Source: Mobula hypostoma (lineage: Eukaryota). Taken from it: a stretch of 64,000 nucleotides of DNA. The translations under genes were made by a program, and so were the position numbers. Numbering within the stretch: position 1 is the stretch's first letter; every line of letters begins with the position of its first letter. This document shows, in pieces, positions 426 through 59,104 of this stretch. The stretch lies in NCBI RefSeq assembly GCF_963921235.1, contig NC_086097.1:3348001-3412000 (forward strand), written 5' to 3'. The notes below the pieces were generated by a model, which searched no databases, was not told the origin of the DNA, and saw only the letters and a list, made by a program, of their open reading frames with translations.

Positions 426-534
426 TATCCTGAAGGATTGATTAAGGATAGGTTGTGTCTAACCAATCTTATAAACTTTTTCAATGATGTTACCTGGAAA
501 GTTGATGAAGGCAAGGCGGTTTGACGTTTCATTT

Positions 535-1152
535 CTGGACAAGCAGTCCTGGCAAGGGACTACAGAGGAGATCAAAAGTGGGTACTGGAAAAGATTAAGG
601 ACGAAACTTGACCTACATGTTGGGAGATTGCTCTGATGACACCTGGGGACAGCACATCGATTGCTTGAGGAGAGCAGAGTCAATTGTTAGAGCAGAAAGT
701 GGGCTTCCACCATCAAAGCCATTTCCTGCAGTCTCACGTCTCACCTACCAAGCAGAGCGACCCCTCCCCTTGTCAGGAAAGTCATTATCTCACAAGAGTA
801 AGAAATCCTCCACAATGATTAAGTCTAGGCCAGAATGTGACAATTGAAAATTTACGATGCTGTGCAGGTCTGTATACGGTAGTTGTGTTATATATGTATA
901 CGGTTGAGATGCATTCTTTATTGTGGTGGAGGTTATTGCTAAGCAGGGAGGAGTGTTGTGTATTTGATATTTTAGTAATATTTGAGAAATAGAAGCATGT
1001 ATTAAGCATTCTTGTTCATTTAAATAATTAATTATGGGTTATATGTATAAACATGTGAATTGCATATGTTATCACACTACCATGTGATACATGCATACCT
1101 TGCTTAAAGTATACACCGAATTAGAGAACATTTCTGATTCCCGAGGCTTCCT
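535..1152 (+). mobile_element. Gypsy LTR retrotransposon 3' remnant: integrase C-terminus, PPT and partial LTR
   Basis: TWGQHIDCLR (WRRHIDQL-like) and YLTRVRNPPQ (RYP.R.R.PP.RL-like) peptides; purine tract AAGCAGGGAGGAG 941-953 directly followed by TGTTG at 954. Confidence 0.75.
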
Positions 1153-1184
1153 TTTTATTCCACTTATGAAACCTAAAGCACTGT

Positions 1185-1735
1185 GCAGGCATTGATTCTA
1201 AAAGTTCTCACATCACGTTCACAACATCAGCAAAGCTCATTTTGGATGGTTTGGTTGGGGCAGTTATACACTGAAGCAAAGTTTAAACCCAATATACTGA
1301 GCAAAATTGGTATCGTTTCTCATTGTTATTTCATTAGTTCCAATCATTCAGTACACGAGTCGATTTCCTGTTGTACAATAAAATACGTAATCTTTCTGAT
1401 ATACTGTAGCCAGCCATTTCTGTTTTTTTTTTGTAAGTATTATCACCCGGTACTCACTCTATAAACCCGTAAATTCTTCGGTTTTCTGACTTATTATGAC
1501 CTTTTTTAAGGTCTTCCCTTCCAAAGAATATGCGGTGTGCTGCATTAAAAAAAACACAACTGTCTATGCATGTGCAGAGTTGTTTTTTAAATTCAGCTGC
1601 TCCTTGCTCTTTTTTTGGTTCGAACATCTCTTTGCACTTCAAAACATCAGTAGACATCTCAGGATCGTTTTAATAATAACTTATCACCAATGTTATGTTT
1701 TGTAACTTTAAAACATTAAACTAATTCAAGGGAAG
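1185..1735 (-). mobile_element. Gypsy 5' remnant: LTR end, PBS-like site, leader and degenerate gag N-terminus
   Basis: Minus strand ...CATAACA (ends 1691) then TTGGTGATAAG; ATG at 1417 (MAGY...) with NEKR/PILLS and TAPTKPSKMSFADVV gag-like peptides. Confidence 0.7.
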
Positions 1736-13010: not shown

Positions 13011-14317
13011 GGTTAAAGAAATTTTCTCAGTGTGTTTGAAAATTGGTGCACTATTAAAATTAAAGTTCAGAATCAGTTGAAATAAAGAGCAATAGACCTG
13101 TAGGCACAGCAGGAGGATATTTACCACTTCATACCAGTATTGCTTCTCAGACTGATCCACTAACTCCCATTTCCAAAACCTTCAAAAGGCAAAGGCCTAG
13201 AAAATTTCAGTTCTCTAATACCCTTTCCTACATCTGGGAGTGGATTAAGTTTCAACATTCAGGATTGCTTAATGTCATTTCCAGCACACAAGTGTAAAGG
13301 AAAACAAAATATTTGTTACTCTAGTTCCAAAGCAGCACAGAAAAAACACAATAAGATACAGAACACAATAATAAAAAATCACAATAAATAAGATAGCTTA
13401 TATATAAAAATATAGATTGATTATACATCCATAAAATGATGCCAGGCACAGGAGTCTGTACATAAAGTGACTCTGACAGGAAATAATAAAGACTTGGTGG
13501 TGGGGGCTTGGAGGGGTGGGTTAGTGAGTTAACGTGTTGATCAGCCTTACTGCTTGGGGAAGGTAATTGTTTTTAAGGCCATAAGACTATAAGATATGGG
13601 AGCAGAATTAGGCCACTTGGCCCATCGAGCCTGCTCCACCATTCAATCATGGGCTGATCCACTTCATCCAGTCATCCCCACACCCCTGACTTCTCCACAT
13701 ACTCTTTGATGCCCTGGTTAATCAAGAGTCAATCTATCTCTGCCTTATATACACCCAATGCCTTGGCCTCCACAGCCGCTCATGGTAACAAATTCCACAG
13801 ATTTACCACACTCTGACAAAAGTAATTTCACCGCGTCTCAGTTCTAGAAGGACATCCTTCAATCCTGAAGTTGTGCCCTCTTGTCCTAGTATCCCCTACC
13901 ATGGGAAATAACTTTGCTGTATCTAATCTGTTCAGGCGTTTTAACATTCAGAGATTCCCCCCTCATTCTCCTGAACTCCACGAATGCAGCCCAAGAGTTG
14001 CCAGATGTTCCTCATACAGTAACCCTTTTTTCCTGGAATCATTCTTGTGAAACTTCTCTGAACCCTCTCCAACGTCAGTATATCCTTTCTAAAATAAGGA
14101 GCCCAAACTGCACACAATACTCTGTGTGGTCTCACGAGTGCCTTATAGAGCCTCAACATCACATTCCTGCTCCTATACTCTATTCCTCTAGAAATGAATG
14201 CAACATTCCATGTGCCTTCTTCACCACCGACTCAATCTGGAGGTTAACCTTTAGGGTATCTTGCACAAGGATTCCTAAGTCCCTTTGGCTCTCTGCATTT
14301 TGAATTCTCTCCCCATC

Positions 14318-14515
14318 TGTTGTGTGTGTGGCCTGGTTACACAACAATGCTATTAATAAAAACGCTGGAAATGGGAGCTAAGGTTCATGGTTCTTTACTG
14401 GCAGAAACCGAACTCGGCACACACGTACAAATCAATACGTGCCTAATAGTGCATTCAATGATGTGTTACTAGAACATAAAGTAGTCCCTTATTAAACTGT
14501 AGGCTATACGGTACA
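14318..14515 (-). repeat. 3' LTR
   Basis: Direct repeat of 18066-18260; reads TGTACCG...CAACA on the minus strand. Confidence 0.95.
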
Positions 14516-14528
14516 CTCCTCCCCTTTT
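14516..14528 (-). promoter_or_regulatory. Polypurine tract
   Basis: AAAAGGGGAGGAG on the minus strand directly before the 3' LTR. Confidence 0.9.
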
Positions 14529-15089
14529 ATTTTAATAGTGTATCAATTGTTTTTTTTTTACTGGGGCACTATGCTAAACAAATATGTTTACCCTTAATGT
14601 ACAAACGTCTACCATTTGTTTACTTAGTAACTTAATAATATCAAATTATAACAAAGTAACATAATAATATCAAATTATAACAAGCCTTTTTTTCACTTTT
14701 GGTCTAAGACCCATTTATAACTCAAGTCTCTGGGGGGGGTGGGTCTTCTCTAGATTGTCTGGCATGAAGCAAATAGGTCTTCACTCTGTTGTCTGGAATA
14801 AATTAAACAATCCACAAATTGGCAGGTTTCAGCCATAAAGAGAAGTCACCTCCATCTTACAAAGATGACGAAAGCAAAGTGAAATCCATGAAAAGGTGAA
14901 TGTTATTCTTAAAAATATGTACAATCATCAAAACTGAGATGGCATTGGAAAGTGTCTTCAAATAGTGTGTTCTTCAGTCTGTCAATAAACTTGTTTGTTT
15001 TAATACAGATTTCCATATAAAAGTCATGAACAGTTGACCTCTGAGCATAGGGAGTTAAGAAGATGTGCGCCTCCAACTTGCTAAGAGTT

Positions 15090-16031
15090 CTATGCAGCAG
15101 ATCGCCTCCGTATAATGAAGACTCCTCTGTGCAGCTGTCCTAGATATACACGCATCTTTGTGCTATCACTTATCTTCCTTACCCATATCTCATTTGTTCC
15201 AACTGAGCTAATTGCACAGCCAATCTTCGTATTCTCATTAGATTCCAAATAGATAGCCTGACCTTTATGATACCACCTCTTATCATAATATAACTTTCCA
15301 TCTTCTATTCGTGCTTCATATCTTTGTGCTGGTGATTCAGCAGGAGTGCTGGGAAGATGTTCAGGAGAAGACAGAGGTGCTGGTCTTTTCGGAGATTTAA
15401 GCTTATTGAGAGTTCACAGATCTTCGATTATCTGTTCATCTGTGAACAAGTAATTTAACTGCGCAGGTGCAGGTTTTTGTCTTTTGTCTGTAATTGGAAC
15501 AGGGTCATTAGGTCTCCTCCTTAGTTTCTTAGTCATTATTGGCTTTACCTCCATAGGATCTCCTGTGAATTCCATTGTTAGCCTCTCATTCTCAATCATC
15601 TGTTTGTTTTCTTCTAACTCAATCTTTTTATCTTCCTTTTAAATTCCATCACTGCTGCTTTCTTCTCTTTAATATAATTCCTTTCCACTTGTTCTGTCTC
15701 CAGTTGCAGAAAAAAACTCTGCATTTTGTATTCTTTCCTTGTATTGTTGATCTGGTTTCTTCATCCTTTTCTGATACTCCTGCAAAGTGCCTTCCTGTAT
15801 CTGCTGTAGCTGTATTTTGAGAGATGTCAATTTCTCCTGGTACATCTGCTCTTTTACTTCCAGGTAGTCTTCATCATCCTGCTTATTGGCAATATCTGTC
15901 TCCCTTGCATCCTCTGTATCTTCATCCGAGTCGCAGCCACGGATACTGCGTTCATCCTCATCGTTGACGCTGTCTAGCTCCTCCTCATCATTGTAATAGT
16001 CGACAGTGGGTGAGAGAAGAGCTGTGGACAT
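15090..16031 (-). pseudogene. SUDS3: Processed (intronless) retrocopy of SUDS3, Sin3/HDAC corepressor component SDS3; frameshifted, with a premature stop
   Basis: [21 protein letters not shown]...DEDTEDA...[77 protein letters not shown]...RRRSAA* are collinear with vertebrate SUDS3 as I recall it, from start to stop. Confidence 0.95.
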
Positions 16032-17233
16032 CTTCCCCGCTGAGCTGCCCTCCTTTGTTAACACATCTAGTGCCTTGATGGTGTGCCAATCCAACTGGAT
16101 TTTCCTGAGCCATTCACGTCCCAGCAACGGTGGTCCTCTGTTTTTCAGTACGTAGAGGTTCAGCTGCTGTGTTTTGTCTCCGTAGGTCACTGTCACTTTA
16201 ATTTTACCTTTGGGATGCACTTTCTGTCCTGTGTAAGTCTTTAGCAGTAGTTTAGTTCGTTTCAGAGGTATGTGAGAAAACAGTTGTTTGTAGTCATGTA
16301 CAGAGATCACTGTTAAAGCTGAGCCTGTATCCAACTCCATTTTAAGTCTCACACCTGCCACTTATGGAGTGATCCTTATTACCCTTCGATCATCTGTCTC
16401 TTTCACGCTGTGAAGTTGCAGACAAGACAATTTACTTTCATCTGAGTCGTTTTCATCAGAACTGCTTTCTCCCATTTTGTGTACATTGTTGTGTTTTCCT
16501 TTCTGGGGTTTCTTGTTTCTCTGTATTTTGTCCTTTTTCTGCTGTTTACTAGCTTTGCATACTCTGCCAGTGTGGCCCTGTTTGCCACAGTTTCTGCATT
16601 CTTTGTCTTTAAACCAACAGTCACCAGGGTGATGTGACCTGTTCTCACAACAGTAACATTTCTTCCCTTCATTTCTGTTCAGTGACATTTTATACATAGC
16701 ATATTCCAGAGATTCTTGTTGTATCTCCGAAGCACCTTGTGCCACTGTTTCTAATGATATTGCAATGTTCAGTGCTTTCTCGAATGTAAGGTCTCGTTCA
16801 CACAGAAGCTTCTTCTGTGTGGCTTCACAGTGCATGTCACACACTAACCTGTCCCTCAATGTGTCCGATAGACCAGCTCCAAATTGACAATGTTCTGATC
16901 ATTTGTGCAATTCAGCACAATATTCAGAAATGCTTTCGTTTTTGTTCTGATTCCGTTTGTGAAATTTAAATCTTTCAGCTATTCAGTGGTTTGGGGTTTA
17001 AATACTGTTGGAGAGAGTCTACTATTTGCTTGGACATTTTGTCAGTGGTTTTCAGTGGTTAACAAGCTCCGTAGTAGCCGGTATGTTTTTGCTTGCATAA
17101 TACTGAGTAAGACGCTGGCTTTCTTTTCATCATTAACACCGTTAGCCTCACAATATAATTCCACTTTTTCAATGTAAGTTACCCAGTTTTCAATGCTACT
17201 ATCAAATGCTGTAATGGTTCCAAATATCGCCAT
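16032..17233 (-). pseudogene. Gypsy gag and aspartic protease, disrupted
   Basis: MAIFGTITAFD...NW..YIEK; RDRLVC; CCHC knuckles CYCCENRSHHPGDC and [22 protein letters not shown]...LLGREWL; in-frame stop at 16362-16364 and indels near 17040. Confidence 0.92.
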
Positions 17234-17422
17234 CCTTGTTATGTTAATTTAGCCCCGTTTTTCCCCGTTTTCTTTTCAGCTAGCTCCTTGCAGTCACAGC
17301 ATGTTCCACTTGACTCACGTGTCATTTTTGCTAGCGCAATGAGCGCACTCCGTCTAGATGCGTGTGTTGCTCCTTTTCATCTCCCTTCTCTCTCTTCTCC
17401 TCTGAGTGACATTATTAACTAA

Positions 17423-18006
17423 CACAAAATAATCTGCAGATGCTGGGGTCAAAGCAACACTCACAACACGCTGGAGGAACTCAGCAGGTCGGGCAGCATC
17501 AGTGGAAATGATCAGTCAATGTTAACTCAGGTTGGATCTACTGCCATGATGAGGCTAAACTCAGGTTGGAGGAGCAACACCTCATATACTGTCTGGGTAG
17601 TCTCCAGCCCCTTGGTACGAACATAGAATTCTCCAACTTCCAGTAATTCCCTCCCCCTCCCTTCCCCTATCCCTATGTCACTCTGCCCCCTCCCCCAGCT
17701 GCCTATCACCTCTCTCATGGTTCCGCCTCCTTCTACTACCCATTGTGTTTTCCCCTATTCCTTCTTCACCTTTCCTGCCTATCACCTCCCTGCCTCCCCT
17801 CCCCCACCCCTTGATCTTTCCCCTTACTGGTTTTTCACCTGGAACCTACCAGCCTTCTCCTTCCCACCCTCCCCCCACCTTCCTTATAGGGCCTCTGCCC
17901 CTTCCCTCTACAGTCCTGACGATGGGTTCCGGCCCGAAACGTTGACTGTTCATTTCCATGGATGCTGCCCGACCTGCTGAGTTCCTCCAGCGTGTTGTAA
18001 GTGTCG
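17423..18006 (+). mobile_element. Truncated Penelope-like insertion with inverted termini in the Gypsy leader
   Basis: Inverted arms about 17463-17523 and 17939-17998; TSD TTATTAACTAA at 17412-17422 and 18007-18017. Confidence 0.88.
17910..17949 (+). ncRNA. Minimal type I hammerhead ribozyme motif (Penelope pLTR)
   Basis: ACAGTC-CTGACGA-T-GGGT-TCCG-GCCC-GAAAC-GTT-GACTGT: 6-bp stem I, conserved core, 4-bp stem II, palindromic loop-less stem III, NUH site. Confidence 0.8.
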
Positions 18007-18050
18007 TTATTAACTAAAACACGGCATTCCGATAAGATGTAGGTTCATAA

Positions 18051-18062
18051 TTCTCGACGCCA
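18051..18062 (-). promoter_or_regulatory. Primer-binding site
   Basis: TGGCGTCGAGAA on the minus strand, 3 nt downstream of the 5' LTR. Confidence 0.8.
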
Positions 18063-18065
18063 ATT

Positions 18066-18260
18066 TATTGTGAATGTGGCCTGGTTACACAATGCTATAA
18101 ATAAAACTGTTGGAGCCAGGAGCTAAGGTTCATTGTTCTTTACTGGCAGAAACTGAACTCGGCACACACGTACAGATCAATACGCGCCTAATAGCACATT
18201 CAATGACGTGTTACTAAAACATAAAGTAATCCCTTATTATACTGTAGGCAAAACGGTACA
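18066..18260 (-). repeat. 5' LTR
   Basis: Direct repeat of 14318-14515. Confidence 0.95.
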
Positions 18261-19232
18261 CCATCTAAATAATAGTCTGCCCATTTATTTCTTCCACCAA
18301 AGTGCATGACCATACACTTTCCAACATTGTATTTCATTTGCCACTTCGTTGCCCATTTCCCCTAAACTATCTAAGTCTCTCTGCAGGCTCTCTGTTTCCT
18401 GAACACAGCCTGCTCCTCCACCTGTCTTTGTATCATCGGCAAATTTAGCCACAAATCCATTAATACTGTAGTCCAAATCATTGACATACATCGTAAAAAG
18501 CAGTGGTCCCAACTCTGACCCCTGTGGAACTCCACTGGTAACTGGCAGCCAACCAGAATATGATTCCTTTATTCCCACTCTCTGTTTTCTGCTGACCAGA
18601 CAATGCTCCACCCATGCTAGTAACTTCCCTGAAATTCCATGGGCTCTTATCTTGCTAAGCAGCTTCATGTGTGGCACCTTGTCAAAGGCCTTCTGAAAAT
18701 CCAAGTACACCACATCCACTGCATCTCCTTTGTCTACCCTGCTTGTAATTTCCTCAAAAAATTGCAGTAGATTAGCCAAGCAGGATTTTCCTTTCAGGAA
18801 ACCATGCTGGCTTTGTCCTATCTTGTCATATGCCTCCAGGTACTCTGTAATCTCATCCATAACAATCTATTCCAACAATTTCTCAACCACTGATGTCAGG
18901 CTAACAGGTTTATAGTTTCATTTCTGCAGCCTGCCACCCTTCTTAAATAGTGGGGTAACATTTGCAATTTTCCAGTCATCCGGTACAATGCCAGAATCCA
19001 TCGATTCTTGAAAGATCATCATTAATGCCTTCGCAATCTCTGCAGCTACTTCCTTCAAAACCCAAGGGTGCATTCCATCAGGTCCAGGAGATTTATCCAC
19101 CCTCAGACCATTAAGCTTCCTGAGCACCTTCTCAGTCGTAATTTTCACTGCACAAATTTCACTTCCCTGACACTCTTGAATATCTGGTATACTGCAGATG
19201 TCTTCCACTGTGAAGACTGATGCAAAATAATC

Positions 19233-20524: not shown

Positions 20525-23500
20525 CTACATAGCTTTCTCCCCGATCAATCTCCCATGATTGATGAAGGCCAATATACCATATGCCTTCTTAACCACAGAG
20601 TCAACCTCTGCAGCAGCTCTGAGCGTCCTATGGATTCGGACCCCAAGATTCCTCTGATCCTGCACACTGCCAAGAGTCTTACCATTAATACTATGTTCTG
20701 CCATCATATTTGACCCACCAAAATGAGCCACTTCACACTTACCTGGGTTGAACTCCATCTGCCACTTATCAGCCCAGTTTTGTATCCTATCAATGTCCTG
20801 CTGCAACCTCTGACAGCCCCCCATACTATTCACAACACCCCCAACCTTTGTGTCATCAGCAAACTTACTAACACATCCCTCCACTTCCTCATCCAGGTCA
20901 TTTATAAAAATGATGAAGAGTAAGGGTCCCAGAACAGATCCCTGAGGCACTCCGCTAGTGACCAACCTCCATGCAGAATATGACCCATCTACAACTACTC
21001 TTTGCCTTCTGTGGGCAAGCCAGTTCTGGATCCACAAAGCAATGTCCCCTTGGATCCCATGCCTCCTTACTTTCTCAATAAGCCTTGCATGGGGTTCCTT
21101 ATTAAATGCCTTGCTGAAATCCATATACACTACATCTACTGCTCTTCCTTCATCAATGTGTTCAGTCACATCCTCAAAAAATTCAATCAGGCTCGTAAGG
21201 CATGACCTGCACTTGAGAAAGCCATGCTGACTAATCCTAATCATATTATACCTCTCCAAATGTTCATAAATCCTGCCTCTCAGGATCTTCTCCATCAACT
21301 TCACAACCACTGAAATAAGACTCACTGATCTATAATTTCCTGGGCTTTCTCTACTCCCTTTCTTTTCAATCTTTTTTTTATTGATTTAAAAGAATAAGGA
21401 TAAATACAAACCAGAGGGGAGGTTATCTCAAATACATATATCAATATTAGTACAAAGAAAGGAATATACACTGTCAAAATCATATATAGTATTAAGCTAA
21501 TATAAAGAGTCAAGAGAACCACTTCTCCTCTCAACAGTTCATAGAAAAAAAAGACTCAAGATTTCCTGTTATTGAGAAAAAAACCCCACTAAACTAATCT
21601 AAAACAAATAAAAGGGGAACTGGGCTAGTTTTTGAGGATACAGTTAAAAAAAAAGGGAAAATCGTTCTGATTAAATCTAAAACTTCGTGGAGAAAAAGAA
21701 ATTAACTGGAAAAGTAAAAAGAATTAGATCATATGAAAATATTGAACAAAAGGTCACCGTTTGCTCAAATTTAAAAGATGTATCAAACATCTGACTCCTT
21801 ATTTTAGACCATAAGACCATAAGACAAAGGAGCAGAAGTAGGCCATTTGGCTCATCGAGTCTGCTCCGCCATTTTCTCCAAATTTAAACAAGACATGATG
21901 GAGGAGAGCCAAAAAAATACAGTAGGTGGATTGGGATCCTTCCATTACAATAGAATAGCTCTCCTAGCCAATACAGTTGAGAAAGCTATCATGCGTTGAG
22001 CATTGAGGAACGTTTCCTGCTTCCATTGGAATAATCCCAAAGATCGCCGTAAATGAATTAGGTTGTAGGTCCAAACCTATGACTTCTGAAAACGTCCTAA
22101 AAACATCTCTCCAAAAATTATTTAACTTTATACAGGACCAAAACATATGATTTAAGGAGGCCACCTCAGTGTTGCATCTATCACAAGTAGGATTTATATT
22201 TTTAAAAAATGCGCTAGTTTATCTTTTGGCATATGCACCTTGTGCACTACCTTGAACTGAATCAAGGAGTGATGGGCATAAATAGATGAATTATTAACTA
22301 AATGAACAATTTTATTCCATTGGTTATCTGAAAGTGACTCTTGAAGTTCCAGTTCCCAAGCATGTTTAACCTTATCATTAGACATCATTCGTAAATTCAA
22401 TAGCTGTTTATATATGATGGCTATCAATCCTTTTTGGAATAGTTTAAGCTGAAAGGTAACATCTATCATATTTGGTGAATGAGCAAACGGGTAATTCGGT
22501 AACAAACTGCGCAAAAAATTCCTAACTTGTAAATACCTAAAAAATTGTGCATTAGATAAATCATATTTGTCCACTAGCTGAGAAAAAGACATTAAACAAT
22601 CCTCTAAAAACAAATCTAGACAAGTTATTATACCCTTAGTTTTACATGTTAAAAAGGCCTTATCTAAAATTGATGGTTTAAAAAAATAATTAAAATGGAT
22701 ATTACTAGAAAGAATAAAGTTATTTAAGTCAAAAGATCTGAGAAACTGAAACCAAATTTTTAATGTATGTCTAACAATGGGACTAAGATCTTGTCTACCA
22801 ATCTTAGAAAACAAAAAGGGAAGAGGAACTCCCAGCAAAGAAGCCAAAGAGAACCTCTTTACTGAGTTCTCCTCCAAGTCCAACTGTGAAGGGCAGTTCT
22901 GCACATCTATACAGTGAATCTAAAAAGTAATATAATGACTATTAATTGCCCAGTAATAGAATCTAAAGTTTGGAAAAGCCAAGCCACCATCTTTTTTTAA
23001 CTTTTGCAGTAAAGGTTTACTCAATCTAGAGCTTTCATTATTCCAGATGTATGATAAGATTATAGAATCCATTCTATCAAAAATAGTTTTCGGGACAAAG
23101 GATGGAACAGCTTGAAACATGTATAAAAATTTTGGTATAATTCTCATTTTTATAGCATTTATTTGACCAATTAACGACATCGTCATAGGCGACCATTTGG
23201 AAAGCGTTTGTTGTGTATATTCAATTAAAGGAAGAAAATTATATTTATATGTCTTTAAAATTTTTAGGACCAAGATAGATACAATAAATTTTAGCAATAT
23301 TAAAAGGTATTTGATCATATTGATCTGAATAATTATTAATAGGAAATAATTCACTTTTATGTAAATTTAACTTATATCCAGAGAAAGTACTGAATTCAGT
23401 AAATATGGATAACATAGAAGGAATAGATTTCCTAGGGTCTGAAATGTAAACTAATAAATCATCTGCATACAACGAAACCTTATGTACTTTATCCCCTCTC

Positions 23501-25174: not shown

Positions 25175-26607
25175 TGAATTGAATTGACTTTATTTCTTAC
25201 ATCCTTCACATACATGAGGAGTAAAAATCTTTATGTTATGTCTCCATCTAAATGTGCAATGTGCAATTATAGTAATTTATAATATATAGAACAGTCAATG
25301 TAATATAGACTACACTCAAATCAGTGTGAGTTCATCAGTCTGATGGCCTGGTGGAAGAAGCTGTCCCGGAGCCTGTTGGTCCTGGCTTTTACGTTTCCCG
25401 GATGGTAGCAGCTGGAATAGATTGTGGTTGGGGTGACTCGGATCCCTAATGATTTTACGGACCCTTTTTACACACCTGTCCTTGTAATTGTCCCGAATCA
25501 TGGGAAGTTCACAACTACAGATGCGCTGGGCTGTCCACACCACCCTCTGCAGAGTCCTGCGATTAAGGGAGGTACAGCTCCCATACCAGGCAGTGATGCA
25601 GCCAGTCAGGATGCTCTCAATTGTGCCCCTGTAGAAAGTTCTTAGGATTTGGGGGCCCATACCAAAGTTCCTCAACCATCTGAGGTGAAAGAGGCGTTGT
25701 TGTGCCTTTTTCACCACACAGCTAGTGTGTACAGACCATGTGAGGTCCTTGGTGATGTTTATGCCGAGGAACTTAAAGGTGTTACCCTCTCACCCCAGAT
25801 TCATTAATGTCATCCCATCTCCATTCCTCCTGTAGTCCACACCCAGCTCCTTTGTTTTTGAGACATTGAGGGAGAGGTTGTTTTCTTGACATCACTGTGT
25901 CAGGGTGATGACTTCTTCCCTGTAGGCCACCTCATTATTGTTTGAGATAAGGCCAATCAATGTAGTGTTGTCGGCAAATTTAATTAGCAGATTGGAGCTA
26001 TGAGTGGCGATACAGTCATGGGTATACAGGGAGTAAAGGAGGGGACTCGGTACGCAGCCCTGAGGGGCTCCTGTATTGAGAGTCAGACGGGTGGAGGTGA
26101 GGGAGCCCACTCTTACAACCTGCTGGCGATCTGACAGGAAGTCCAGGATCCAGCTGCACAAGGCAGGGTGAAGGCCGAGGTCTCTGAGCTTCTTGTCGAG
26201 CCTGGATGGATTATGGTGTTGAATGATGAACTGTAGTCCAAGAACAGCATTCTCACATAAGCATCCTTCTTCTCCAGATGTGTAAGGACGGTACGTAGAG
26301 CAGTGGATTTTGCGTCATCTGTCGATCGGTTGTGTCGGTAGGCGACTTGTTGGGGGTCCAGTTTGGATGGCAGCAAACTGCAGATATAATCCTTGACCAG
26401 CTTCTCAAAGTGCTTGCTTATTATTGGGGTGAGTGCGACAGGACGCCAGTCGTTCAGGCGTGTTACCTTAATTCTTTTTTGGTGCAGGGACAATGTTGGA
26501 TAATTTGAGGCAGGGGGGCATTCTACACTGGGTGAGGGAGAGATTAAGAATGTCAGTAAACCCATCTGCCAGTTGTGCTGCGCACATCCTGAGTACTCGC
26601 TCTGGGA
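25175..26607 (-). mobile_element. Rex1/Babar LINE (RT to 3' tail) inserted in a plus-strand CR1 3' end (about 25000-26710)
   Basis: LNDWRPVALTP, MLFLDYSS, TGAPQGCV.SP, KFADNTT, KKAQQRLFHLR; (CAATT)n tail; TGAAT at both junctions. Confidence 0.88.
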
Positions 26608-27619
26608 TGAATGGGGTTGAGAGGGATAATAAGTCAGCCATGATGAAATGGTGCAGCAGACTCAATGGGCCAAAGGGCCTTATTCTGCTACTATGTCTTA
26701 AGGTCTTATTGAATGTTGAAGATACTATCTAAATAAGCAGTAATAGCAACTAGAAATCTATGTAACAAATTCAGGAAACAACTTACTTTACTCCCCACAC
26801 ATGGAAACAAGTTTCAGTATCTTAGAGAGTAGTTAATGGGTGAGAATCCACAAGTTTATGGTTCTTTGTACTACCTTTACGAACAGGTATATTAACAGTA
26901 GGCTATATACCCCAAGTTCAAGTTCAAGTTTAATTGTCACTTAACCATAACGTACAACAGCTAAACAACATTCGTCCGGGGCGAAGGTGCAAGAGCCCCA
27001 TACAGTCACACGTGGCACACAACACATAGCATGTACAGTCACAAAAATGAAATAATAATAATATTAATAATAGCTCAGGTGCCTGAAGAATGACAGTGCT
27101 TTGCAGTACCTTATGGAATAATTCATTTGGCCGCATATCAACATCATGCCAAATAAATGAGAGAAAATTGATTAATGCGATAAGAATGGCTTTTCCTTCT
27201 GGCTTTGACGCAGATCCTTAATGTATAGTTACATATATATATAAAGCTGAAACCATCATCGGGCAAAGTGGCATCTTAATGGCATCATTACTACAAGAAT
27301 GAATCGGTGAAGTATAGGACAATTAATAACTAATCCTATTTTTTCCTTCCCTGAGAACAAAGTTGTCCTTGGGTAACATCACAGATTTCTGTTTAAAACA
27401 CTCTCTGAGGATCACCTGTCACAAGACATCATCATCTCTTCCTTGCCACTGACTCTGAGGTTTCAGAGCTCTTTGACTCATTATTTAGTCATTCTGAAGA
27501 TATTGATCCATGACAAGGGAAACCCTGAGGATATTTGACTTCATTAGTCTAAAGAAAACATATTGTGTGCATTACACATTATTCAAACATATTTACTTGC
27601 ATGTGTTAGAGCTATATAT

Positions 27620-33454: not shown

Positions 33455-35325
33455 GGGGCTGGGCATGAAAGGAAGCCAGCAAATAATATCAAAGAGGATA
33501 CTAAAAGCTTTTTCAAGTATATAAAGAGTAAGAGATGGATGAGAGTAGATATAGGGCCGATAGAAAATGATGCTGGAGAAATTATAACGGGAGATAAGGA
33601 GATGGCAGAGGAACTGAACGAGTATCTTCACTGAGGAAGACATCAGCTGTATACCGGACACTCAAGGGTGGCAGGGAAGAGAAGTGTGTGCAGTCACAAT
33701 TTCCTGAGAAAGTACTCAGAAAGCTGAATAGTCTAAGGGTAGATAAATCTCCAGGACCAGATGGAATGCACCCTCGGGTTCTGAAGGAAGTAGCTGTGGA
33801 GATTACGGAGGCATTAGCAATGATCTTTCAAAAGTTGATAGATTCTGTCATGGTTCCAGAGGACTGGAAGATTGCAAATGTCACTCCACTATTTAAGAAG
33901 GGGGCAAGGAAGCAAAAAGAAAACTATAGACTGGTTAGCTTGACATCGGTGGTTGGGAAGTTGTTGGAGTCGATTGTCAAGGATGAGGTTACGGAGTACC
34001 TGGAGGCATATGACAAGATAGGCAGAACTCAGCATGGTTTCCTTAAAAGAAAATTCTGCCTGACAAACCTATTACAATTTTTTGAGGAAATTACAAGTAA
34101 GCTAGACAAGGGAGATGCAGTGGATGTTGTATATTTGGATTTTCAGAAGGCCTTTGACAAGGTGCCACACATGAGGCTACTTAACAAGGTAGAGCCCATG
34201 GAGTTATGGGAAAGTTACATACATGGATAGAGTGTTGGCTGATTGGCAGGAAACAGAGAGTGGGAATAAAGGGATCCTATTCTGGTTGGCTGCTGGTTAC
34301 CAGTGGTGTTCCACAGGGATCTGTGTTGGGGCCGCTTCTTTTTACGTTGTACATCAACAATTTGGATTATGGAATAGATGGCTTTGTGGCTAAGTTTTCT
34401 GATGATACGAAGATAGGTGGAGGGGCCGGTAGTGCTGAGGAAACAGAGAGTCTGCAGAGAGACTTGGATAGATTGGGAGAATGGGCAAAGAAGTGGCAAA
34501 TGAAATACAATGTTGGAAAGTGTATGGTTATGCACTTTGGCAGAAGAAACAAACGGGCAGACTATTATTTAAATAGGGAGCGAATTCAAAGTTCTGAGAC
34601 GCAACAGGGCTTGGGAGTCCTCGTACAGGATACCCTTAAGGTTAACCTCCAGGTTGAGTCGGTAGTGAAGAAGGCAAATGCAATGTTGGCATTCATTTCT
34701 AGAGGAATAGAGTATAGGAGCAGGGATGTGATGTTGAGGCTCTATAAGGTGCTGGTGAGACCTCACTTGGAGTAATGTGGGCAGTTTTGGGCTCCTTATT
34801 TAAGAAAGGATGTGCTGACGTTGGAGAAGGTTCAGAGAAGATTCACTGGAATGATTCCGGGAATGAGAGGGTTAACATATGAGGAACATTTGTCCGCTCT
34901 TGGACTGTTTTCCTTGGAGTTTAGAAGAATTGGGGGGGGGGGACCTCATAGAAACATTTCGAATGTTGAATGGACAGAGTGGATGTGGCAAAGTTGTCTC
35001 CCATGATGGGGGAGTCTAGTACGAGAGGGCATGACTTAAGGATTGAAGGGCACCCATTCAGAACATAAATGCGAAGACATTTTTTTAGCCAGAGGGTGGT
35101 GAATCTATGGAATTTGTTGCCATGGGCGGCAGTGGAGGCCAAGTCATTGGGTGTATTTAAGGCAGAGATTGATAGGTATCTGAGTAGCCAGGGCATCAAA
35201 GGTTATGGTGAGAAGGCGAGGGAGTGGGACTAGATGGGAGAATGGATCAGCTCATGATAAAAAGGTAGAGCAGACTCGATGGGCCGAATGGCCGACTTCT
35301 CCTTTGTCTTATGGTCTTATGGTCT
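33455..35325 (+). mobile_element. 5'-truncated CR1 LINE, frameshifted RT
   Basis: ORFs 33688-34230 and 34206-34775 carry CR1 RT motifs; (TCTTATGG)n tail. Confidence 0.92.
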
Positions 35326-39994: not shown

Positions 39995-41620
39995 CTGAAG
40001 CAGAATTAGTCCATTCAGCCCATCAAGTCTGCTCTGCCGTTCCATCATGGCTGAAAATCCCTCTCAACCTCCTTCTGCCTTCTCCCTGTAACCTTTGACA
40101 GAGATTAAGACCATAAGACAAAGGAGCAGAAGTCAGCCATTCGGCCCATCGAGTCTGCTCTACCATTTTATCATGAGCTGATCCATTCTTCCAATTAGTC
40201 CCACTTCCCTGCCTTCTCACCATAACCTTTGATACCCTGGCTACTCAGATACCTATCAATCTCTGCCTTAAATACACCCAATGACTTGGCCTCCAGTGTC
40301 GCCCGTGGCAACAAATTCCATAGATTCACCACCCTCTGACTAAAAAAATTTCTTCACATCTCTGTTCTGAATGGGCACTCTTCAATCCTTAAGTCATGCC
40401 CTCTCGTACTAGACTCTCCCATCATGGGAAACAACTTTGCCACATCTACTCTGTCCATGCCTTTCAACATTCGAAATGTTTCTATGAGGTCCCCCCTCAT
40501 TCTTCTAAACTCCAGGGAATACAGTCCAAGAGCGGACAAACATTCCTCATATGTTAACCCTCTCATTCCAAGAATCATTCTAGTGAATCTTCTCTGTACT
40601 CTCTCCAACATCAGCACATCCTTTCTTAAATAAAGAGACCAAAACTGCCCACAGTACTCCAAGTGAGGTCTCACCAGCGCCTTATAGAGCCTCAACATCA
40701 CATCCCTGCTCCTATACTCTATTCCTCTAGAAATGAATGCCAACATTGCATTCGCCTTCTTCACTACTGACTCAACCTGGAGGTTAATCTTAGGATATCC
40801 TGCACGAGAACTCCCAAGTCCCGTTGCATCTCAGAACTTTGAATTCTCTCCCCATTTAAATAATAGTCTGCCCATTTATTTCTTGTGCCAAAGTGCATAA
40901 CTGTACACTTTCCAACATTGTATTTCATTTGCCACTTCTTTGCCCGTTCTTCCAATCTATCCAAGTCTCTCTGCAGACTCTCTGTTTCCTCAGCACTACC
41001 AGCCCCTCCACCTATCTTCGTATCATCAGCAAACTTAGCCACAAAGCCATCTATTCCATAATCCAAATTGTTGATGTACAACGTAAAAAGAGGTGACCCC
41101 TGTGGAACACCACTGGTAACTGGCAGCCAACCAGAATAGGATCCCTTTATTCCCACTCTCTGTTTCCTGCCAATCCGCCAATGCTCTATCCACGTATGTA
41201 ACTTTCCCGTAATTCCATGGGCTCTTACTTTGTTAAGCAGCCTCATATGTGGCACCTTGTCAAAGGCCTTCTGAAAATCCAAATATACAACATCCACTGA
41301 ATCTCCCTTGTCTAGCCTATTTGTAATTTCCTCAAAAAATTGCAATAGGTTTGTCAGGTAGGATTTTCCTTTCTGATTAATCAAGAATTTATCAACTTCT
41401 GCTCTAAATACTCAGTGACCTGGCCTCCACAGCTGCCTGTGGCAATGAATTCCACAGATTCACTGCCCTCTGGCTAAAGAAATTCCTTCTCATCTGTTTT
41501 AAACAGGTGTCCCTCTATTCTGAGGCTGTGCCCTCTGGCCCTAGATTCCCCCACTACAGGAAACATCCCCTCCACGTCCACTGTATCTAGGCTTTCAATG
41601 TTCAATAGGTTTCAATGAGA
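39995..41620 (-). mobile_element. CR1 (about 40108-41372) nested in an older CR1 3' end
   Basis: RT ORFs 40354-41384; AGACCATA tail at 40108; the flanks rejoin as a CR1 3' region; GATTAA at both junctions. Confidence 0.85.
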
Positions 41621-56753: not shown

Positions 56754-58605
56754 TAGAAACATAGAAACATAGGAAATAGGTGCAGGAGTAGGCCATTCGG
56801 CCCTTCGAGCCTGCACCGCCATTTATTATGATCATGGCTGATCATCCAACTCAGAACCCCGCACCAGCCTTCCCTCCATACCCCCTGACCCCTGTAGCCA
56901 CAAGGGCCATATCTAACTCCCTCTTAAACATAGCCAATGAACTGGCCTCAACAGTTTCCTGTGGCAGAGAATTCCACAGATTCACCACTCTCTGTGTGAA
57001 GAAGTTTTTCCTAATCTCGGTCCTAAAAGGCTTCCCCTCTATCCTCAAACTGTGACCCCTCGTTCTGGACTTCCCCAACATCGGGAACAATCTTCCTGCA
57101 TCTAGCCTGTCCAATCCCTTTAGGATCTTATACGTTTCAATCAGATCCCCCCTCAATCTTCTAAATTCCAACGAGTACAAGCCCAATTCATCCAGTCTTT
57201 CTTCATATGAAAGTCCTGCCATCCCAGGAATCAATCTGGTGAACCTTCTTTGTACTCCCTCTATGGCAAAGATGTCTTTCCTCAGATTAGGGGACCAAAA
57301 CTGCACACAATACTCCAGGTGTGGTCTCACCAAGGCCTTGTACAACTGCAGTAGTACCTCCCTGCTCCTGTACTCGAATCCTCTCGCTATAAATGCCAGC
57401 ATACCATTTGCCTTTTTCACCGCCTGCTGTACCTGCATGCCCACTTTCAATGACTGGTGTATAATGACACCCAGGTCTCGTTGCACCTCCCCTTTTCCTA
57501 ATTGGCCACCATTCAGATAATAATCTGTTTTCCTATTTTTGCCACCAAAGTGGATAACTTCACATTTATCCACATTAAATTGCATCTGCCATGAATTTGC
57601 CCACTCACCCAACCTATCCAAGTCACCCTGCATCCTCTTAGCATCCTCCTCACAGCTAATACTGCCACCCAGCTTCGTGTCATCCGCAAACTTGGAGATG
57701 CTGCATTTAATTCCCTCATCCAAGTCATTAATATATATTGTAAACAACTGGGGTCCCAGCACTGAGCCTTGCGGTACCCCACTAGTCACCGCCTGCCATT
57801 CTGAAAAGGTCCCGTTTATTCCCACCCTTTGCTTCCTGTCTGCTAACCAATTCTCCACCCACACCAATACCTTACCCCCAATACCGTGTGCTTTAAGTTT
57901 GCACACTAATCTCCTGTGTGGGACCTTGTCAAAAGCCTTTTGAAAATCCAAATATACCACATCCACTGGTTCTCCCCTATCCACTCTACTAGTTACATCC
58001 TCAAAAAATTCTATGAGATTCGTCAGACATGATTTTCCTTTCACAAATCCATGCTGACTTTGTCCGATCATTTCACCGCTTTCCAAATGTGCTGTTATCA
58101 CATCCTTGATAACTGACTCCAGCAGTTTCCCCACCACCGACGTTAGGCTAACCGGTCTATAATTCCCCGGTTTCTCTCTCCCTCCTTTTTTAAAAAGTGG
58201 GGTTACATTAGCCACCCTCCAATCCTCAGGAACTAGTCCAGAATCTAACGAGTTTTGAAAAATTATCACTAATGCATCCACTATTTCTTGGGCTACTTCT
58301 TTAAGCACTCTAGGATGCAGACCATCTGGCCCTGGGGATTTATCTGCCTTTAATCCCTTCAATTTACCTAACACCACTTCCCTACTAACATGTATTTCGC
58401 TCAGTTCCTCCATCTCACTGGACCCTCTGTCCCTTACTATTTCTGGAAGATTATTTATGTCCTCCTTAGTGAAGACAGAACCAAAGTAATTATTCAATTG
58501 GTCTGCCATGTCCTTGCTCCCCATAATCAATTCACCTGTTTCTGTCTGCAGGGGACCTACATTTGTCTTTACCAGTCTTTTCCTTTTTACATATCTATAA
58601 AAGCT
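56754..58605 (-). mobile_element. Young 5'-truncated CR1 LINE
   Basis: Uninterrupted ORF2 frame and (TTTCTATG)n tail. Confidence 0.95.
56851..58530 (-). CDS. CR1 ORF2 reverse transcriptase domain and C-terminus, 559 aa, lacking the endonuclease
   Basis: KSPGPDG, NYRPVSLTS, YLDFQKAFDKV, GVPQGSVLGP, KFADDTK with no stops; expression not shown. Confidence 0.85.
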   Translation of the reverse strand: MIMGSKDMADQLNNYFGSVFTKEDINNLPEIVRDRGSSEMEELSEIHVSREVVLGKLKGLKADKSPGPDGLHPRVLKEVAQEIVDALVIIFQNSLDSGLVPEDWRVANVTPLFKKGGREKPGNYRPVSLTSVVGKLLESVIKDVITAHLESGEMIGQSQHGFVKGKSCLTNLIEFFEDVTSRVDRGEPVDVVYLDFQKAFDKVPHRRLVCKLKAHGIGGKVLVWVENWLADRKQRVGINGTFSEWQAVTSGVPQGSVLGPQLFTIYINDLDEGIKCSISKFADDTKLGGSISCEEDAKRMQGDLDRLGEWANSWQMQFNVDKCEVIHFGGKNRKTDYYLNGGQLGKGEVQRDLGVIIHQSLKVGMQVQQAVKKANGMLAFIARGFEYRSREVLLQLYKALVRPHLEYCVQFWSPNLRKDIFAIEGVQRRFTRLIPGMAGLSYEERLDELGLYSLEFRRLRGDLIETYKILKGLDRLDAGRLFPMLGKSRTRGHSLRIEGKPFRTEIRKNFFTQRVVNLWNSLPQETVEASSLAMFKRELDMALVATGVRGYGGKAGAGF

Positions 58606-59104
58606 TATGTAAAGCTTATAAAAGCTTTAGTAGCATTTACAAGACAGAAGACCTGTTGGCAGCAACACATGGCCAAGACTTTGTGGTTAGCTCTGATAAC
58701 TGATGACATAGAGCCACTGGGGAGGAATAATTAGAACCATACAGCTCTTCAGCCCACAGTATTGTGCCAGACCAATGTGAGAGAAAATTCCTACAAGAAG
58801 GGTGGAGTATTGCATTGATTAATAACAGCTACATTGATCACATACATCATTTTGATAATCTTTTTCAACATTTTATCACAAAGATTATATAAATATGTTG
58901 CAGGCGGGACAGACATACGTTGTTCACATAGACTAGACAATTCAAACTGGAGAAGTTCAAATTTGCAACACGATGGGAACAGGACTTTGAGATGTAGATT
59001 GGATTAGTGATCTCATCATTGAGGTTTCTCTGGAAGAAATTGATCAGAATAAGAGTGAACTTGATGTTGATTTGAAAACAGACAAAAACCAAAAATGGAA
59101 ATAA

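Follow-up and report, generated by a model that had tools for sequence, protein, structure and literature searches.

A 64,000-nucleotide stretch of the genome of the ray Mobula hypostoma (NCBI RefSeq assembly GCF_963921235.1, contig NC_086097.1, positions 3,348,001 to 3,412,000 of the forward strand; hereafter the window) contains a 3,943-bp long terminal repeat (LTR) element that carries a copy of the host gene SUDS3. The element was read directly at 18260-14318 of the window and lies on the minus strand, as do its parts and flanks below, the nested repeat excepted. Its 5' LTR (18066-18260, 195 bp) and 3' LTR (14318-14515, 198 bp), delimited by aligning the pair, are identical at 172 of the 195 aligned positions (88%; Kimura two-parameter distance 0.13). 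Both begin with TG, and the final dinucleotide is CA in the 3' LTR and TA in the 5' LTR. Two priming signals were read directly: a TGG-initiated stretch resembling a primer-binding site (PBS; TGGCGTCGAG..., 18042-18062), which starts 3 nt past the 5' LTR and in which almost all contigs of the family described below have another base at 18057, and a polypurine tract (PPT; AAAATAAAAGGGGAGGAG, 14516-14533) adjoining the 3' LTR. An earlier reading made without database searches (the sequence-only reading) had proposed the order 5' LTR, PBS, gag, protease, SUDS3, PPT and 3' LTR on this strand, and every one of these parts was recovered in its place, the PBS as a PBS-like stretch.

The element is bounded by directly read target-site duplications (TSDs) of GATGG (plus strand CCATC), the upstream copy at 18261-18265 and the downstream copy at 14313-14317, and both flanks are halves of a single reverse-transcriptase open reading frame (ORF) of a long interspersed nuclear element (LINE; Pfam RVT_1, 2.4e-19), whose upstream half occupies 18266-18866 and which resumes at 14312 and below. 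LINE relatives free of the insertion show the joint 14312->18261, which skips 3948 bp, that is 3943 plus 5, with 6 letters that fit on either side. We found this joint in contigs of four public runs (X1, 12; X16, 7; X5, 19; X9, 16). Since uninterrupted relatives cross the site with exactly this joint, the clean rejoining of the host LINE around a CCATC duplication, as previously described, is real.

Within the element, a decayed gag with a CCHC zinc knuckle (16365-17233) is followed by an aspartic protease (PR) with the motif LDTGS (16062-16364), the latter identified by identity to homologues. Three polyproteins of fish elements (P0228, P0229 and P0230) align to gag by tblastn in three pieces and three frames; the reading frame of gag is broken by frameshifts near 17056 and near 16983 and by an in-frame stop at 16901. 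An in-frame TAA (16364-16362) just before the protease brings the lesions of gag-pro to two frameshifts and two in-frame stops (16901 and 16364). When the translation of 16859-16062, with one stop written as X (P0226), was used as a query, 123 of 1672 candidate proteins matched at E<=0.001. The best full-length matches were the same three polyproteins, single ORFs of 1311-1318 residues from autonomous elements that are 58-60% identical to the query over 266 residues and whose source names are "K02A2.6-like" or "Gypsy retrotransposon integrase-like". Their precomputed Pfam domains (PF13975, PF00078, PF17917/17919, PF17921 and PF00665) give the order PR, reverse transcriptase (RT), RNase H, integrase, an order taken from these relatives and not from the window element.

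Polyprotein residues 1 to approximately 400 mapped by tblastn onto 17242-16041 in three frames, and none of residues 400-1315, which hold RT, RNase H and integrase, could be placed within 18260-14318. The earlier observation that no RT, RNase H or integrase core is left was thus borne out. The presence of the first part and the absence of the second identify the element as a Ty3/Gypsy derivative that has kept gag and protease and lost RT, RNase H and integrase. A 303-residue protein from an ENA record (P0123), an intact gag-PR-RT fragment that is 86% identical to the element across the protease and extends into the start of RT, is taken as a putative fragment of the autonomous partner lineage. 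Elsewhere in the window, 528-827 (plus strand) and 1136-1282 (minus strand) gave weak tblastn matches to the C-terminal end and the gag part of K02A2.6-like polyproteins and are probably small fragments of related Gypsy elements.

A spliced SUDS3 segment separates the protease from the PPT and LTR and so lies between non-contiguous parts of a single Gypsy element. SUDS3 (SDS3) is a subunit of the Sin3-HDAC co-repressor, and the vertebrate gene has about a dozen exons. The coding sequence (CDS) in the element runs from an ATG at 16031 to a TAG at 15092-15090 (15090-16031) and was identified by Pfam, PDB, tblastn and protein searches. All 327 residues of Mobula birostris SDS3 (P0005; residues 1-327/327) align collinearly on 16031-15093 by tblastn. 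The Pfam Sds3 model scored 26 bits (cut-off 25.4), SDS3 chains in the PDB were matched (7sxi, 1.8e-39; 2n2h, 8.2e-07), and 514 of 672 candidate proteins matched at E<=0.001, with chondrichthyan SDS3 proteins at the top (87-89% identity over the C-terminal 169 residues). The copy was described beforehand as free of introns, which we could verify at two places, KRP|ASP and LNK|LKSP, where ray gene models reveal exon boundaries: the models P0005 and P0049 have spurious insertions there, and P0124 skips the small exon between them. No intron is present in the window copy at either boundary.

The earlier reading gave a CDS from ATG to stop; the frame between them is not intact. Relative to a parent-like contig, the CDS has gained 1 nt in a T-run near 15710 and 5 nt near 15636, the latter restoring the frame, and it is interrupted by an in-frame TGA at 15416-15414. 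It has further lost 24 nt in frame at approximately 15615, corresponding to the eight residues KENLIAEL. The contig used for calling the two insertions (298 nt, depth 239.6, over 15560-15839) comes from run X16; it contains the 24 nt missing from the window and has neither the +5 nor the +1 insertion, features by which it appears parent-like. That X16 is an RNA run is a guess, on which calling this a transcript contig depends. The window copy of SUDS3 is a pseudogene.

We located the 5' junction, where the protease/RT boundary gives way to the SUDS3 5' untranslated region (UTR), by comparing protein sequences by eye, a mixed MAFFT alignment of chimeric and non-chimeric proteins having been uninformative. 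At this place the autonomous fragment P0123 reads IKALFVSARENSEATPP (longer stretch ...IQLDWSTIKALFVSARENSEATPPRLSQ), and a bamboo-shark SDS3 model that reads through upstream of its start (P0003) gives GEGGLAGKM (longer stretch ...GEGGLAGKMSATLLS). Gypsy homology ends at about KEGS and SUDS3 homology begins by about (L/S)AGKM, which places the joint within 16055-16041 (feature 16041-16055) and implies that approximately 12-17 nt of 5' UTR were retained. The frame is open throughout this zone and a 230-residue ORF crosses it, so that Gag, protease and SUDS3 would have been made as one fusion by the founder of the element.

The 3' end of the segment was defined with another X16 contig (record 12; 1674 nt, depth 94.9), which aligns in sense from 15381 to 14765 over 617 nt without gaps and with 32 mismatches. 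The contig begins right at the exon boundary KRP|ASP and fits, judging from this alignment, a last-exon contig of the parent SUDS3 gene. It runs on for approximately 1057 nt past 14765, where it is unlike the window. This divergence indicates that the element captured only the proximal part of a much longer 3' UTR, approximately 325 bp (14765-15089), truncated and without poly(A). The sequence-only reading had presumed about 340 bp of 3' UTR; its presence stands, and its length is corrected to approximately 325 bp ending near 14765. Directly past 14765 the sequence reads TGCCAGACAATC, with no A-run. From there to the PPT extends an internal 3' region (14534-14764) that lies past the end of the parent alignment and that contigs of other copies link to the 3' LTR (X1 record 1; X16 records 10 and 11); it is presumably the 3' untranslated end of the Gypsy element. 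This region includes a 29-bp unit in tandem duplication (96% match) at 14626-14683. An 8-nt word, CCAGACAA, occurs at 14796-14789 in the captured 3' UTR and again at 14762-14755, 2 nt past the end of parent homology; it may be a relic of microhomology or of slippage during the 3' switch, or may be due to chance.

These junctions bear on whether SUDS3 arrived as a LINE-mediated processed pseudogene inside Gypsy pol, with later deletions taking the remaining pol, the poly(A) and the TSD. Such a history would suit a genome rich in LINE reverse transcriptases, and a 2026 preprint, in its accessible text, assigns non-mammalian retrocopies to CR1 and Tx1 LINEs (10.64898/2026.06.26.734816). Against it, no poly(A) stands at the SUDS3 3' end at 14765. 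The nearest runs of at least six A, at 14693-14687 and 14559-14550, are not taken as poly(A) remnants, since parent homology ends 72 and 206 nt before them. The 3' UTR stops internally, the parent-like contig being about 1 kb longer, and no AATAAA is found just upstream of the segment end. The segment also has no flanking direct repeats of its own: the longest word common to the two junction neighbourhoods is 5 nt, a length reached in 970 of 1000 shuffles. Pol remnants are found on neither side, and a mobile chimera with identical junctions in several species would have needed at least three precise deletions before it amplified. We therefore regard a LINE-mediated origin as decidedly unlikely. 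The claims that the copy has neither poly(A) nor a TSD of its own were both upheld.

The locus is not alone. Ray genomes contain NCBI gene models named "SDS3-like", six in Mobula hypostoma (P0010, P0094, P0126, P0128, P0132 and P0195), where the copies sit on at least five different contigs, three in M. birostris (P0013, P0130 and P0131, the last two with full-length 311-residue ORFs) and two in Hypanus sabinus (P0129 and P0133); at least 12 annotated chimera loci are present in four ray species. The protease-SUDS3 junction of the window is found identically in the Mobula hypostoma model P0094 (QALDVSAKEGSLVGKISTALLSP) and in P0348 of Hemitrygon akajei (XP_072884955.1). The latter came from a representative-library search in which, among the best 150 of 4502 matches, P0348, P0359 and P0376 were examined; P0359 and P0376 reach past the junction and are plain Gypsy proteins, and the comparison left out five further matches that reach past it (P0371, P0396, P0407, P0415 and P0432). 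P0348 bears the RefSeq name "Y-box-binding protein 1-like" and consists of a gag N-terminus, the protease end, the junction and the SUDS3 N-terminus, followed by a cold-shock/Y-box protein; it represents either an artefact of gene modelling over adjacent repeats or a copy that took up a second passenger from the host. In addition, three contigs from the DNA runs bridge the protease-SUDS3 junction at approximately 87-90% identity (X1 record 3; X9 records 25 and 26). Sharing between copies was established in this way for the 5' junction, not for the 3' junction.

Other carriers of the junction, of the kind that the earlier reading had suggested looking for, thus exist, and they also dispose of misassembly as the source of the chimera. 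An artefact in which a Gypsy copy was mis-joined to SUDS3-derived reads might be entertained on the ground that no run contained more than half of the locus's sampled words. Independent RefSeq gene models and contigs of differently labelled organisms nevertheless have the identical junction, which refutes such an artefact for the architecture and reduces its probability to a practically negligible level.

The 24-nt deletion provides a second marker of the family. We parsed the motif in 220 SDS3-type proteins (10 more were unparsable): the eight-residue segment is present in 211 and missing from nine, all of them ray SDS3-like copies and together every ray SDS3-like copy that could be parsed. 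A common splice isoform was considered as the source of the deletion and rejected on this distribution, since only the ray SDS3-like copies lack the segment. At the nucleotide level, the 24 nt are present in the parent-like transcript contig and missing from every DNA-run contig that covers the site. The ray copies further differ from orthologues in two motifs, with PITDKR for PIPDKR and HKGQ for HKSQ. Listed variable sites of the SUDS3 CDS are covered by many contigs each (16-55 in X1, 13-53 in X5 and 19-63 in X9), and at most of these sites nearly all contigs differ from the window base, which identifies these differences as private mutations of the window copy. Summed contig depth in the SUDS3 bins is several hundred times that of individually listed low-depth contigs, a rough hint of hundreds of family copies, summed depth not being a copy number.

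In a protein tree built from rows chosen by hand (10 orthologues and 11 copies, with P0129 excluded for its shortness and P0114 because a Callorhinchus model was already included), ten ray copies and the window copy fell on one side of a branch with support of 87/92 that was present in 86% of bootstrap trees. The copy group is placed among batoid orthologues and is star-like inside, with terminal branches of 0.02-0.16. Together, these findings point to one capture, after which the chimera spread through myliobatiform rays in a burst of secondary retroposition. Almost certainly, the window insertion came about by secondary transposition from a family that was already chimeric and amplified, and is not the capture event. 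The earlier proposal of an LTR-mediated chimera is supported, except that the locus is a decayed secondary copy whose junction and deletion are common to other copies.

Could the copy in the window nonetheless be a working retrogene, fused as Gag-PR-SUDS3 or standing alone? The junction is in frame, and some Mobula copies have the full-length ORFs mentioned above (P0130 and P0131). In the window, SUDS3 has two frameshifts and a premature stop and gag-pro two frameshifts and two stops, which refutes function for this copy, and the long terminal branches of the tree fit neutral decay. We consider such a role extremely improbable.

One part of the element is foreign to its original form. A very abundant nested repeat of 598 bp (17401-17998) is a secondary insertion, with 67-bp inverted termini whose arms (18004-17938 and 17457-17523) are 92.5% identical; the repeat has 22 further matches within the window. 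It is missing from other family copies, in which contigs skip 17400->17999 (598 bp; X16, n=2; X5, n=1). The repeat is flanked by near-duplicate sequences of approximately 20 bp, GTTTTAGTTAATAACGACAC and GTGTTAGTTAATAATGTCAC, and its summed contig depth is the highest of the whole window in all four runs. Around the element the window is a LINE-rich repeat landscape, with Pfam RVT_1 in further open frames at 20525-21385, 26113-26661, 33598-34775, 40764-41411 and 56851-58626. A Pfam test of the window's 12 longest open frames recognised no host gene.

Taken together, the evidence makes it likely that the region represents one decayed member of a non-autonomous Ty3/Gypsy family whose founder exchanged RT, RNase H and integrase for a spliced SUDS3 segment through LTR-mediated retroposition. 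In this process, RT in a virus-like particle would have started the minus strand on the 3' end of Gypsy RNA and switched a first time, at approximately 14765, from the Gypsy 3' region into the 3' UTR of a co-packaged SUDS3 mRNA. It would then have copied that mRNA nearly to its 5' end and switched a second time, at approximately 16047, back to Gypsy RNA at the protease/RT boundary. The captured host part would comprise approximately 12-17 nt of 5' UTR, the entire CDS and the first approximately 325 nt of 3' UTR, and the product would retain both LTRs, PBS, PPT, gag and protease, the last followed in frame by SUDS3. Because these parts were kept, the chimera could have been transcribed and packaged, and autonomous relatives could have provided RT and integrase in trans for its re-insertion. 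In this way the chimera would have multiplied in myliobatiform rays, and the window copy would have arisen by secondary insertion into a LINE, the nested repeat and the disabling mutations coming later. The preference of the sequence-only reading for an LTR-mediated over a LINE-mediated retrocopy agrees with the structure on each point that it predicts.

The same end product might be reached by a different path, in the manner of retroviral oncogene capture. Here, a Gypsy element would have inserted upstream of or within SUDS3, a read-through or deletion-derived spliced chimeric transcript would have formed, and one non-homologous switch would have occurred, at the 3' junction only. The 5' joint, in frame and approximately 12-17 nt before the SUDS3 ATG, is compatible with a joint made at the DNA or the transcript level, and the final product would look the same. 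This path, however, requires an insertion at the parent locus together with a deletion or a fault in processing that falls precisely at the protease/RT boundary, whereas a double switch takes fewer events and, in the accessible text of PMC5131818, is documented for metazoan LTR retrocopies. We judge it unlikely.

Several points weigh against the double-switch capture and single origin favoured here, or against parts of them. At the 3' junction, the position depends on a single contig, from a run only guessed to be RNA, and a second piece of the alignment is possible; it also depends on a reading of the strand convention, which was checked on X9 records 24 and 30 (unaligned tails on the insertion side). 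No listed contig bridges 14765 with at least 31 letters on both sides, and only contigs with an extra C behind 14764 (X1 10, X5 6, X9 8) show some copies crossing 14765. In all three DNA runs (X1, X5 and X9), the summed depth in the bin 14770-14923 is several-fold under that of the SUDS3 CDS bins; the drop is unexplained, no listed contig joins across the bin, and family copies or subfamilies with a different or deleted part of the 3' UTR may exist. The Gypsy origin of 14764-14534 is unconfirmed. At the 5' junction, the overlap between the donors (E-G/N-S/G) is seen at the protein level only. The Pfam matches of the protease (gag-asp_proteas, 25.7 bits against a cut-off of 28.2; Asp_protease_2; RVP) are all under the curated cut-offs, so its identification relies on homologues. 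Finally, support for the single-origin branch is moderate.

The element has counterparts among known systems. In acutely transforming retroviruses, a spliced host cDNA in frame with gag-derived sequence takes the place of replication genes, propagation depends on a helper, and at least one junction is attributed to non-homologous template switching. The window element resembles such gag-onc retroviruses in its spliced host cDNA, in frame behind gag-derived sequence, and in the loss of replication genes. It differs from them in having no env and not being infectious, its spread being germ-line and intragenomic, and in its passenger, a chromatin co-repressor subunit without evidence of selection or phenotype.

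A closer parallel is the work of Tan et al. (2016, Genome Res; PMC5131818), whose accessible text describes metazoan LTR-mediated retrocopies formed when RT switches from element RNA to a co-packaged mRNA and back. According to that text, the resulting chimeras contain truncated mRNAs, have neither poly(A) nor a TSD of their own, and can act as non-autonomous LTR elements that undergo secondary retroposition. The window element shares with these retrocopies a spliced host mRNA between non-contiguous parts of an LTR element, truncation at the 3' end, the absence of poly(A) and an own TSD, and secondary retroposition. Unlike them, it has a complete CDS in frame behind gag-protease and keeps both LTRs, PBS and PPT. 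The cases in the accessible text are single- or few-copy loci, whereas the window chimera apparently exists in many copies over several ray genera. Tan et al. report there microsimilarity at many junctions; in the window, an overlap is seen at the protein level at the 5' junction. Another precedent that the same text covers is maize Bs1 (Elrouby and Bureau, summarised in PMC5131818), an LTR retrotransposon with partial exons of three genes and 1-5 copies in Zea that share switch points. As in Bs1, internal sequence has been replaced by host exon sequence. In contrast to Bs1, the window element carries one complete animal CDS, and its family comprises the annotated loci in four ray species (at least 12), with each site covered by tens of contigs in the sequencing runs.

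Template switching as a route to LTR-mediated retroposition, with secondary retroposition afterwards, is an already described mechanism. The new findings are that the locus belongs to an amplified family of SUDS3 chimeras, that the junction is present in other rays, that the family has its own eight-residue deletion, and that the window copy is dead. No description of a SUDS3-carrying LTR element was found in the open-access literature searched, and the Vertebrate Genomes Project (VGP) Phase I paper leaves SUDS3 unmentioned. In the accessible text of the 2026 preprint, SUDS3 is one of the five parental genes with the most retrocopies in cartilaginous fishes, beside MIPOL1, SDF2L1, SLU7 and ZNF276, and such lists are interpreted by expression in the germline and by selective retention (10.64898/2026.06.26.734816). 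The main text of that preprint uses none of the words Gypsy, chimeric and template switch.

The route to gene duplication seen here is a known one that is rarely preserved so clearly. The locus keeps all the parts needed to read the capture of a vertebrate host gene: both LTRs, the TSD, gag-pro, both junctions, a CDS of intact length and a truncated UTR. It is unusual in that a complete CDS was captured in frame, in that the vector is fully preserved, and in its apparent amplification over several ray genera. A more speculative idea is that the Gag-protease-SUDS3 fusion, with its eight-residue deletion in the coiled coil, bound or titrated Sin3-HDAC and so weakened silencing or steered integration; the chimera would then have outgrown its partner and brought SUDS3 among the most retrocopied genes. 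We regard this as highly unlikely.

That the chimera has spread as a family in rays matters for retrocopy surveys, and it offers annotators a reason for the many "SDS3-like" models in ray genomes. For rays, we lean towards a single LTR-vector capture, not repeated LINE-mediated retroposition, as the explanation of the excess of SUDS3 retrocopies. If most SUDS3 copies ride one non-autonomous Gypsy family, their count would represent one capture and would carry no information on selection acting on SUDS3. MIPOL1, SDF2L1, SLU7 and ZNF276 might also be passengers of mobile vectors.

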